Source: a virus
Taxonomy: Duplodnaviria; Heunggongvirae; Uroviricota; Caudoviricetes
IMG/VR virus record: IMGVR_UViG_2540341028_000007
Length of the DNA stretch: 18,485 bases
Reading direction: 5' to 3' (one strand)
The translations under genes and the position numbers were made by a program. How positions within the stretch are numbered: position 1 is the first letter of the stretch; the number at the start of each line of letters is the position of its first letter. The notes beneath the pieces were generated by a model. That model was given only the letters and a program-made list of their open reading frames with translations, searched no databases and had not been told where the DNA came from. Shown here one piece after another: positions 9,340 to 11,586 of the stretch.

Positions 9340-11175
9340 TTACCTGCCAAAGCGCGTATAGCCAACATCATGGCTGACATCAAAACCGCTGGATCGCGTT
9401 TCCATAACCCGCATACCCGGAGGCGAATTCACAAAAGAGACCTTGATCTCACCATCAACTTTTGGCGCAGAAGCTTTGTTAATCATGAAGGGATTCGGGC
9501 CTGTGGCACCGGAGGCGTTGTTTGACTGAGCCGGATCTACCGCCTGATAAGGTGTGTATCCCCGTGCCGGTATTCCCGTCCCATAAGCATCATAAGCACC
9601 CGCGCCCCACTGCGCAGAGTTAATGGCATCGACCGTGTCACCGGAACTGTCGGTAAACCACTCAATAATTGGCTTCAGTTTGTCCCACATATCCTGAAAC
9701 CACTTAACAACCGGTCCCCAGTTATTGATTACCATCCCCAGCGGCGACCAGGCAAAAACCTTCTTCAGAAGTTCCCAGCCAGCCTCAAAATAAGGACCAA
9801 TGGTTTCCCAGAGCTTCTTGAAATAAGGTCCGACAACATCCCAGTTAGTGATAATTAATCCCGCAGCCAGGGCTATCGCCGTCGCAATCATTCCAATCGG
9901 CGTCATCGACATGATCCTGCTGACAATACTGATGGCACCGCCAACGCCCATCAATCCCAGTTTCAGAATCGCAAGACCGGCAGCAAGCCCGACGACGCCG
10001 CGAATAACCCGGGGATTTTCATCCGCAAACTTCGTGAATTTTTCCCCTAACTCCCCCAGCCATTGCGTGATATTTTTGGCGTCACCAGAAAATGCGCCGC
10101 CAATAGCCGCAAGGCCGTTAGTTGCGGTCCCCGTCATTGCCTCCCACAGGTTGGACAGCGTACCAAGCTGGGCCTGAACACGTTTATTCAGGCTGGCCTG
10201 TTTATTCATCTTCTGCTGGATCTGATCGTAGCCATCCTTTCCTTTATCGATTAGTGCATTGACCACCTGAAGGGTTTCGGCATCATCACCAAATATTGCC
10301 TTAAGTACACCTGTTCGCTTAACGTCGGTCAGTTTTCGCAGCTTTGCCAGTTGCCTGAACATGTTATCAAGACCGCCAAAACTTCCTTTGCCGTCAGTAA
10401 AATCGAGCTGTACCCCGAGTTTCTGGCGGGCCATGATTTTATTGACGTCCCTGATTTTCTTAACGCTTAATCCGGACTGGATAACTTTTCGCAGGGCGTT
10501 ACCTGCCGACTCCCCGTTCATCCCCATCTGATCCATCATGACGCTGATGGGGGCAAGGCTCTGTGCAGCCTGAAGACCGTCCTTGTTCACCATCTTCAGA
10601 ACAGAGCTGGTTTTAGTGAAGAAGGACAACATGTTGGTATCGTCAACACCCAGATAAAACGCCTTCTGGATAGTGTCGAACAGCCCCATCATGTCTTCTG
10701 ACGCCGTTCCGGTAGCATCCTGCATCTTTGCAGCAAACTCAGCAGCCGCTTCCGGTGTTTTTTTCAGTTGTACCGCAAGATAAGCTGTCGCTTTACCCAC
10801 ACCGCCAAGAATGTTTTCTGCCGGGATCCCCTGACGCACCAGCATCTGCATCATGTTCTGGAAATCAGCCGTTGTACCGGGTAGCTGGTTACCCAGGCCA
10901 ATAGCCAGTTTATTGATGTCCTGAAAGCTCTTTCCGACCTCGCCGTTCGCATCCATCATGGCGACTTTCAGCCCGGTGGCGGCGTTTTCCTGATCGGCAT
11001 AAGATTTCAGGGAAAGCGTCAGACCCGCTGCCAGTCCGCCACCAAGCGCCAGCCCACCCTGTGACGCTTCTTCCGCCTGGCGTTTAAATCCCCGGATTTT
11101 CTTTTGCATTTTCGACAGCGCGGGAGAAAGCCTGTCGACACCGGTGATCAACGCCTTAAGCTCAAATTCCGCCAT
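9340..11175 (-). CDS. Tail tape measure protein
   Basis: 611-aa ORF, Ala/Gly/Leu/Met-rich with predicted coiled and hydrophobic glycine-rich segments; located directly downstream of the frameshifting tail-chaperone pair, the canonical position of the tape measure gene. Confidence 0.8.
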   Translation of the reverse strand: MAEFELKALITGVDRLSPALSKMQKKIRGFKRQAEEASQGGLALGGGLAAGLTLSLKSYADQENAATGLKVAMMDANGEVGKSFQDINKLAIGLGNQLPGTTADFQNMMQMLVRQGIPAENILGGVGKATAYLAVQLKKTPEAAAEFAAKMQDATGTASEDMMGLFDTIQKAFYLGVDDTNMLSFFTKTSSVLKMVNKDGLQAAQSLAPISVMMDQMGMNGESAGNALRKVIQSGLSVKKIRDVNKIMARQKLGVQLDFTDGKGSFGGLDNMFRQLAKLRKLTDVKRTGVLKAIFGDDAETLQVVNALIDKGKDGYDQIQQKMNKQASLNKRVQAQLGTLSNLWEAMTGTATNGLAAIGGAFSGDAKNITQWLGELGEKFTKFADENPRVIRGVVGLAAGLAILKLGLMGVGGAISIVSRIMSMTPIGMIATAIALAAGLIITNWDVVGPYFKKLWETIGPYFEAGWELLKKVFAWSPLGMVINNWGPVVKWFQDMWDKLKPIIEWFTDSSGDTVDAINSAQWGAGAYDAYGTGIPARGYTPYQAVDPAQSNNASGATGPNPFMINKASAPKVDGEIKVSFVNSPPGMRVMETRSSGFDVSHDVGYTRFGR

Positions 11176-11350
11176 GTGTGCGTTTCTCCTGCTCTATCCT
11201 GTTTGCCTGACTGACCAGCAAGGTAATTTCACTGATCGGCATATTCAGCAATTCGAAAGGATTAATGCGCCAGTAACTGGCGCAGTCAAAGAAGCGATCA
11301 GTGAGGTATTCAGCCGTCAGGCCTGGAGGAAAAAACCAGCCACAAGCCAC
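11162..11350 (-). CDS. Frameshift extension of the tail assembly chaperone (expressed only as a -1 frameshift fusion with 11317-11586)
   Basis: ORF in the -1 frame relative to the chaperone ORF; overlaps it by 34 nt, ends 14 nt inside the tape measure start, and its ORF-track start is a GTG with no independent support. Conserved chaperone / frameshift-extension / tape-measure arrangement. Confidence 0.55.
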   Translation of the reverse strand: MACGWFFPPGLTAEYLTDRFFDCASYWRINPFELLNMPISEITLLVSQANRIEQEKRTHGGI

Positions 11351-11586
11351 GCCGCTGCATTCAGGTCTGCCGGAGACATCTGGTCGACAGAGCTTTGCGG
11401 CACTTTCGCCAGCCGCACAATGTATTTCGACACCACATGCGCCAGAAGTCTGACTGACTCATCCTGATTCATCTGGTAGGGATACCCCAGCTCGCGGACA
11501 TCCTTCCCGGTGGGTTCATCAAACTCCAGTACGGAGAGTGTCTCGCCATGAGCAGTAATCGGTTTCTTTAACTCAAGCTCTTTCAT
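11317..11586 (-). CDS. Tail assembly chaperone (lambda G / P2 E analogue)
   Basis: 89-aa ORF between the tail tube gene and the tape measure gene, with an overlapping -1 frame extension; start overlaps the tube gene stop at 11586. Confidence 0.65.
   Translation of the reverse strand: MKELELKKPITAHGETLSVLEFDEPTGKDVRELGYPYQMNQDESVRLLAHVVSKYIVRLAKVPQSSVDQMSPADLNAAAWLVAGFFLQA
11329..11335 (-). other. Candidate -1 programmed ribosomal frameshift slippery heptamer T_TTT_TTC
   Basis: Minus-strand mRNA reads ggT TTT TTC ctc in the chaperone frame (plus strand gaaaaaa at 11329-11335). A -1 slip on TTT_TTC moves ribosomes into the 11162-11350 frame (FF then PPGLTAEY...). Confidence 0.5.

Follow-up and report, generated by a model that had tools for sequence, protein, structure and literature searches.

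The window analysed here, an 18,485-nucleotide (nt) stretch of viral DNA (IMG/VR record IMGVR_UViG_2540341028_000007), contains an SfV-type prophage with a Mu-like tail. The tail assembly chaperone gene of this prophage very probably carries a -1 programmed ribosomal frameshift of the G/GT type, located at a slippery heptamer, T_TTT_TTC, on the minus strand (11329..11335). Most ribosomes would complete an 89-amino-acid (aa) chaperone and stop at the TGA codon at 11317-11319. A minority would slip with two tRNA-Phe on UUU in the P site and UUC in the A site of U_UUU_UUC, both tRNAs re-pairing one base back on UUU UUU, and would read on in the -1 frame to a stop 14 nt within the tape measure gene, yielding a fusion of 141 aa. 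If the lambda gpG/gpGT and P2 E/E+E' pairs are a guide, the N-terminal domain common to both products would coat the tape measure protein, and the C-terminal T domain, made in smaller amounts, would recruit the tube protein; the frequency of slipping would set the fixed G:GT ratio needed in tail assembly.

In systems of the G/GT type, two proteins that share an N-terminus are made in a fixed ratio, both being required for tail assembly and both absent from virions. This type of frameshift in the tail assembly chaperone genes of tailed phages was reportedly set out by Xu, Hendrix and Duda in 2004, as later papers cite it.

The tail genes run on the minus strand in the order sheath (split), tube, PF10109 chaperone, -1 open reading frame (ORF) and PF10145 tape measure, with the two overlapping ORFs between the tube and tape measure genes that mark a G/GT-type system. 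The tube gene (11586..11942; 118 aa) matches PF10618 Tail_tube (E=4e-31), is labelled tail tube in the records of SfV and related phages, and overlaps the chaperone ATG by 1 nt with its stop codon (TAATG). The chaperone ORF, here termed G (11317..11586), encodes the 89-aa zero-frame product and matches PF10109 Phage_TAC_7 (E=1.9e-16; 60.3 bits against a cut-off of 25), residues 4-86 corresponding to profile positions 2-78. The Pfam title of this family is ‘Phage tail assembly chaperone proteins, E, or 41 or 14’, and in PHROGs the protein matches phrog_166, ‘tail protein’ (E=7e-24). An AF2 model of G, modelled on its own, has a mean pLDDT of 75.5 and its top BFVD matches are predicted viral proteins named ‘tape measure chaperone’ and ‘tail assembly chaperone’ (probability 0.98-1.0 and TM 0.5-0.66, with weak E values of 2e-3 to 7e-2). 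No significant match for G was found in the PDB by fold or by sequence, the sequence search returning spurious matches to light-harvesting complexes. The -1 register ORF (11162..11350; 62 aa) has codon starts 1 nt upstream of those of the chaperone frame, and its part beyond the slip site, the T extension (11162..11329), consists of 55 aa and a stop codon (PPGLTAEY...THGGI). The tape measure gene (9340..11175; 611 aa; PF10145 PhageMin_Tail, E=1e-26) begins with the ATG at 11175.

Over the 1.1-kb region, identity to the window is 98% in the Shigella serotype-converting phages SfV, SfI and SfII and the E. coli phages vB_EcoM-689R6 and SKA5, and 71-76% in Edwardsiella phage EPP-1, Pantoea phage AH07, phiP27, ST64B, SfIV and Yersinia YeP1-3. 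The module was found in 1063 of 5426 complete E. coli genomes.

The heptamer occupies the zero-frame codons GGT TTT TTC (G84-F85-F86) in the mRNA-sense context ...GCT GGT TTT TTC CTC CAG GCC TGA, in X_XXY_YYZ phase and four codons before the stop. Translation of the -1 frame from the heptamer (FFPPGL...THGGI*) gives FFPPGLTAEYLTDRFFDCASYWRINPFELLNMPISEITLLVSQANRIEQEKRTHGGI*, ending at 11162, and this frame overlaps the tape measure gene by 14 nt (11162 against the ATG at 11175). Written as complement(join(11162..11329,11329..11586)), with base 11329 read twice, the predicted fusion comprises 86 plus 55 residues, 141 aa in all; its predicted junction peptide is ...WLVAGFFPPGLTAEY... / ...AAAWLVAGFFPPGLTAEY. 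An earlier note on this DNA had described the 89-aa and 62-aa ORFs as overlapping in the -1 register, with T_TTT_TTC at 11329-11335 and a fusion of ~140 aa ending just inside the tape measure start. Both ORFs (11317-11586 and 11162-11350) are there in the register that it described, the heptamer is present at the stated position and in the zero-frame phase, and the fusion comes to 141 aa with its 14-nt overlap.

Slip site and extension in relatives

The comparison drew on nine annotated phage loci and 32 true loci from one-genome-per-species bacterial assemblies, giving 37 distinct sequences; one locus from the genome scan (L123) was left out as a false positive, a GspE-like ATPase. The G proteins of these loci are 27-100% identical to that of the window, and the hosts are Enterobacterales, the betaproteobacterium Derxia gummosa and two uncultured proteobacteria.

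An in-phase heptamer lies at the same codon in all 37 distinct sequences, as T_TTT_TTC in 22 and T_TTT_TTT in 15, and at offset 242-263 in all nine annotated phage relatives, with the 32 genome loci keeping it likewise. In the protein alignment the Phe-Phe pair at the site never varies. Its first codon is TTT in 37 of 37, and the codon before the pair ends in T in every sequence, whether it is GGT, AAT, CGT or AGT, which specify four different residues; either C or T is tolerated as the last heptamer base. At 16 other conserved G residues between two and six synonymous codons are used, with the minor codon making up 24-41% at the two-fold degenerate ones. The synonymous-site constraint at the heptamer is exactly what an X_XXY_YYZ slip site would be expected to impose.

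A homopolymer of this kind could also act at the level of transcription, RNA polymerase stuttering on the run of six or seven Ts and adding one U to some transcripts, which would then be translated in the ordinary way. Efficient polymerase slippage in enterobacteria takes runs of ~8-9 or more. One clade does have seven Ts, but the window and 22 of the 37 distinct relatives have six only, and the homologous P2 site is T6G. The run is moreover always in the exact X_XXY_YYZ phase, which is relevant to tandem tRNA slippage and not to polymerase slippage, although homology alone could preserve the phase. E. coli genes contain fewer UUUUUUU runs than expected in each of the three frames, a deficit that Sharma et al. 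ascribe partly to transcriptional slippage (PMC4066793). Taken together, transcriptional slippage is an improbable source of the fusion, and ribosomal frameshifting is favoured.

The extension behaves as protein-coding sequence in the -1 frame. Among ten co-linear sequences, 2003 of 3055 differences in G fall at frame-0 third positions, and 994 of 1841 differences in the extension fall at -1-frame third positions. Read in the -1 frame, the extension has a mean pairwise peptide identity of 0.70, against 0.46-0.48 in the other two frames. The -1 ORF ends between 1 nt before and 14 nt past the tape measure start in every relative but one, the exception being Salmonella phage 118970_sal3 (L009, NC_031940), in which the frame breaks throughout the module. 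In this record the sheath is divided among three coding sequences and the tape measure gene between two, and the chaperone frame is disturbed, which suggests that the tail module contains sequencing indels throughout. By comparison with the extension, the zero-frame tail of G past the slip site is not conserved and ranges from 3 to 23 residues.

Two clades illustrate this range. In the SfV clade G stops 3 residues after the slip site. In the phiP27/ST64B/SfIV clade (L005, L006, L007, L111-L122) it runs for ~20 acidic, Ser/Thr-rich residues past it, and ~66 nt are therefore read in two frames, once for the tail of G and once for the T extension.

The 62-aa ORF (11162-11350) could alternatively be an independent small gene, begun at its own -1-frame GTG at 11350, which precedes the heptamer by 15 nt; the vB_EcoM-689R6 record and 10 small protein clusters do label such an ORF ‘hypothetical protein’. 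Against this, there is no Shine-Dalgarno (SD)-like sequence before the GTG in the window, and no internal promoter-like or terminator-like site was found on the coding strand. In 26 of the 37 distinct homologues the -1 frame holds no ATG, GTG or TTG before the site, several have none within the conserved peptide either, and the conserved -1-frame peptide starts right at the slip site. A separate gene is thus a very remote prospect, and the warning of the earlier note that the 62-aa ORF should not be annotated as one is supported. Least probable of all, and already contradicted by the comparative data, is that the 141-nt stretch from the chaperone stop to the tape measure start would be a noncoding spacer or the relic of an old indel with a coincidental heptamer: the heptamer and open frame of the single sequence are indeed not unusual and the RefSeq pipeline (PGAP) leaves the stretch unannotated, but the -1-frame periodicity, the 70% mean peptide identity across genera, a frame open to the tape measure start in every relative except the one error-ridden record and the invariant synonymous sites of the heptamer would all go unexplained.

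Taken together, the tests of the slip site, its synonymous positions, the reach of the frame, its periodicity and its starts show that the extension is protein-coding and accessible only from the G frame at the T-run. The proposal of a G/GT-type -1 frameshift is accordingly backed by gene order, by an in-phase conserved heptamer and by frame-specific purifying selection on the extension.

The extension matches phrog_32181, of ‘unknown function’ (E=6e-40), and received no Pfam or NCBIfam assignment. A protein search with the extension only returned just 10 clusters, small or short and all ‘hypothetical’, against hundreds of members for G, from which it follows that gene finders rarely call the T ORF. 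A search for natural in-frame G-T fusions in a database of 5.8 billion proteins gave three fused proteins (P0001-P0003), which were rejected as assembly errors, being singletons with scattered indels. More broadly, the public protein collection holds singleton ‘fused’ or extended chaperones from error-prone assemblies (P0001-P0005, P0007) that could be mistaken for natural fusions.

Relation to other frameshifting systems

As judged by these comparisons, the system is a homologue of P2 E/E+E' that functions in the manner of lambda G/GT, and it does not belong to the Mu type. The -1 frameshift of P2 occurs at T_TTT_TTG (Christie et al. 2002 and Xu et al. 2004, as cited in PMC3091744). The upstream ORF of P2 carries the same Pfam domain, PF10109 (47.8 bits for P2 E against 60.3 for the window G), at ~23% identity. 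The slip codons F84-L85 of P2 E fall on PF10109 positions 77-78, as do F85-F86 of the window (...VGF-L and ...AGF-F), and the heptamer contexts, GGT TTT TTG in P2 and GGT TTT TTC here, differ in the last base alone, which is C or T in the relatives. The products are also of similar size, 91 and 142 aa in P2 against 89 and 141 aa here. The P2 extension overlaps its tape measure gene (gene T) by 8 nt as compared with 14 nt, and a downstream RNA structure is neither reported for P2 nor found here. Since the slip site stands at the same PF10109 position in P2-like and SfV-like tails, a T-rich slip site is probably ancestral to the PF10109 chaperone family.

The relationship may extend beyond the chaperone domain. 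When 33 predicted fusions are combined in a profile, it aligns with P2 E+E' collinearly over both parts (hhalign E=7e-5), and the extension alone gives a suggestive hhalign match to P2 (P=9e-4, probability 23%). The extension probably works like P2 E' and is probably distantly related to it, without being a member of PF06528 (P2 GpE). The two phages differ in their sheath, tube and baseplate genes, the neighbours here being Mu-like and not P2-like, and the P2 record carries an annotated join for E+E', unlike the SfV-type records.

Lambda gpG/gpGT, the source of the functional model (PMC5009743), occupies the same place between the major tail and tape measure genes, yields a short abundant and a long rare product and, like the site described here, does without a needed stimulatory structure. 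There is no detectable sequence similarity between the two systems. The lambda heptamer is G_GGA_AAG, decoded by Gly and Lys tRNAs instead of Phe and Phe, and lambda is a siphovirus with a non-contractile tail whereas the tail here is contractile.

Comparison with Mu-like prophage homologues had been proposed as a check on the frameshift. The slip site and the extension did prove to be conserved, but the homologue of the chaperone pair turned out to be P2 E/E+E', Mu gp41 belonging to PF23746 and having a -2 shift. Mu gp41 lies in the same place in the tail module, the window's gp38, sheath, tube and baseplate genes being similar to those of Mu. Gp41 itself (144 aa) gives a weak PF10109 signal of 24.7 bits and matches PF23746 (Gp41_Mu) at 9e-35. 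Its extension is in the +1/-2 frame, there are several stops in its -1 frame and it has no T-run; the shift has been described as -2 (PMC2628397, PMC5009743). A gp41-type arrangement was considered for the window and rejected, as G matches only PF10109 and the +1 frame of the window is closed after 16 codons.

Outside phage tails, dnaX and the insertion sequence (IS) elements IS3 and IS911 use X_XXY_YYZ heptamers with tandem tRNA slippage in the same manner, and U_UUU_UUC itself is used by some IS elements (PMC4066793). The dnaX and IS3 signals add an upstream SD-like element, a hairpin or pseudoknot 5-9 nt downstream, or both, neither of which is conserved here.

Stimulatory elements, efficiency and points against frameshifting

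Several observations weigh against a functional frameshift at this site. In the single sequence, a heptamer with an open frame behind it could be due to chance: the window has 12 copies of TTTTTTY where 6.6 +/- 3.4 would be expected, and ~23% of all window positions and frames are stop-free for at least 58 codons. Since neither feature stands out statistically, the argument draws its weight only from position, phase and conservation in relatives. Nor is the conservation absolute. Among 80 IMG/VR copies with a G protein 100% identical to that of the window, a set of no use for diversity, TTTTTTC is found in 77, GGG TTT TTC in two and GGG TTT TTT in one. The conserved frameshift of the earlier note therefore stands for the 37 distinct sequences and fails, in its heptamer, in these three near-identical copies (L031, L062 and L068; locus positions 1752-1758), which have G at the first heptamer position and an intact T ORF. 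Mildly deleterious changes that arose recently, as prophages decay, could account for the variants. Another possibility is that the U_UUC/U_UUU tetramer left in them keeps some shift activity, such tetramers being themselves prone to shifting in E. coli (PMC4066793).

The search for stimulatory elements gave little. A hairpin or pseudoknot downstream of 11329 had been proposed as something to look for, but folding of the window and of the 37 homologues, together with RNAalifold, found no conserved canonical stimulator. The 59 nt after the site in the window fold no better than shuffled sequence (z=-0.19), and z-scores for the 55 nt after it in the 37 sequences are near 0 for most, with no common fold. 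An SD-like core 4-mer 6-17 nt upstream of the heptamer occurs in just 2 of the 37 and not in the window, and an Rfam search returned no relevant match. The bare UUUUUUC reporter value is just 0.12%, and a useful efficiency here is no more than putative. On the protein side, three divergent extensions have no match to PF06528 at E<=10, while P2 E+E' matches it at 1e-21. Finally, in this genome the frameshift signal is intact but probably not in use, and it may be a relic.

Two hairpins were examined individually. A weak 4-bp hairpin, GGCC-UGAC-GGCU (11312..11323, minus strand), begins 5 nt after the heptamer and has the stop codon of G in its loop; it is probably not functional, because the folding z is ~0 and many clade members lack it or have a different one. 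For 12 clade members, RNAalifold gave one consensus hairpin, UGCGCCAG-NUA-CUGGCGCA, which in the window is a perfect 8-bp hairpin, UGCGCCAG-UUA-CUGGCGCA (11266-11284, minus strand), inside the T extension and 45 nt after the heptamer. It is kept in the SfV-like clade and lies over the conserved CASYWRI codons. Its covariation term is unfavourable (+0.65), divergent members do not keep it intact, and the phiP27/ST64B clade lacks it. As a canonical stimulator it was rejected, being distal, placed on the CASYWRI codons, without covariation support and broken in the divergent members.

The signal therefore appears to be a bare heptamer, and the lack of a downstream structure is likewise reported for P2 and its Burkholderia relatives (PMC3091744). 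In E. coli, few motifs shift as readily as those of the form H_HH.U_UU.Y (PMC4066793). In one set of reporters in this species, bare UUUUUUC shifted at 0.12%, UUUUUUU at 0.33%, the P2 motif UUUUUUG at 0.12% and the lambda motif GGGAAAG at 0.28%, and UUUUUUC with the IS3 pseudoknot reached 7.6% (PMC4066793 supplement). The natural G:GT ratio of lambda is ~30:1 (PMC5009743), about ten times its bare-motif reporter value, which means that native contexts matter. The efficiency here is probably of the order of one percent. There is a slim chance that slipping here reaches a biologically useful level with no canonical stimulator, which would point to an unrecognized enhancer common to P2-type and SfV-type chaperones, for which the conserved E-site Gly codon GGU, the nascent ...VAGFF peptide and, acting at a distance, the hairpin at 11266-11284 are candidates.

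Annotation and the state of this prophage copy

None of the nine annotated phage regions examined, all SfV-type records, carries a joined G-T coding sequence. The vB_EcoM-689R6 record gives the -1 ORF as a separate hypothetical protein, and RefSeq annotation by PGAP leaves a 141-nt gap between the chaperone and tape measure genes. No paper tying SfV-type phages to this frameshift was found among the open-access papers searched, the tables of Xu et al. 2004 being unchecked for SfV, and the cluster is not among the five prophage candidates of Sharma et al. 2014 (PMC4066793). This is an unannotated case of a well-known kind, and an ordinary one, which opens no new biological question. Its value lies mainly in annotation. 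The correction touches about a fifth of complete E. coli genomes, and the module is present also in the Shigella serotype-converting phages SfV, SfI and SfII and, in divergent form, in SfIV, phiP27, ST64B and phages of Yersinia, Edwardsiella and Pantoea. Recognition of the frameshift would give a function to phrog_32181, and the fusion would be a missing essential tail gene product in the engineering of SfV-type phages or tailocin-like derivatives.

The copy in the window is itself damaged. The sheath gene (11942-13438, minus strand) has a premature TAG at 13010-13012 where SfV has CAG, splitting the 498-aa sheath protein into a 142-aa fragment and a remainder; without suppression of that stop the gene is a pseudogene. 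Of the major capsid protein, the C-terminal 203 aa alone are left (15621-16232, minus strand). On the plus strand there follow an IS3-family orfA (16310-16636; HTH_Tnp_1) and orfB (16633-17523; rve), the two lying in the -1 register to one another, and a fragment of a host PTS EIIC gene (17381-18190) adjoins this IS3-family element. The head module has been cut short by the IS element, and with a premature stop in the sheath gene and a truncated capsid gene the prophage is defective and cryptic, its chaperone module being probably inactive.

Three further features of the window deserve mention. An AGGAG at 11186-11190 on the minus strand, within the T coding sequence, is a possible SD sequence read from the letters, and it may serve the tape measure gene. 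A second TTTTTTC (14646-14652, minus strand) falls in the 26-nt overlap of the ORFs at 14639-15049 and 14158-14664, the head closure gene and the next gene, where it is probably part of an ordinary overlapping start. The plus strand at 1456-2604, past the tail fibre genes, codes for an Acyl_transf_3 protein of 382 aa; it had no nucleotide match in the phage collection and could be an O-antigen acetyltransferase carried as cargo.

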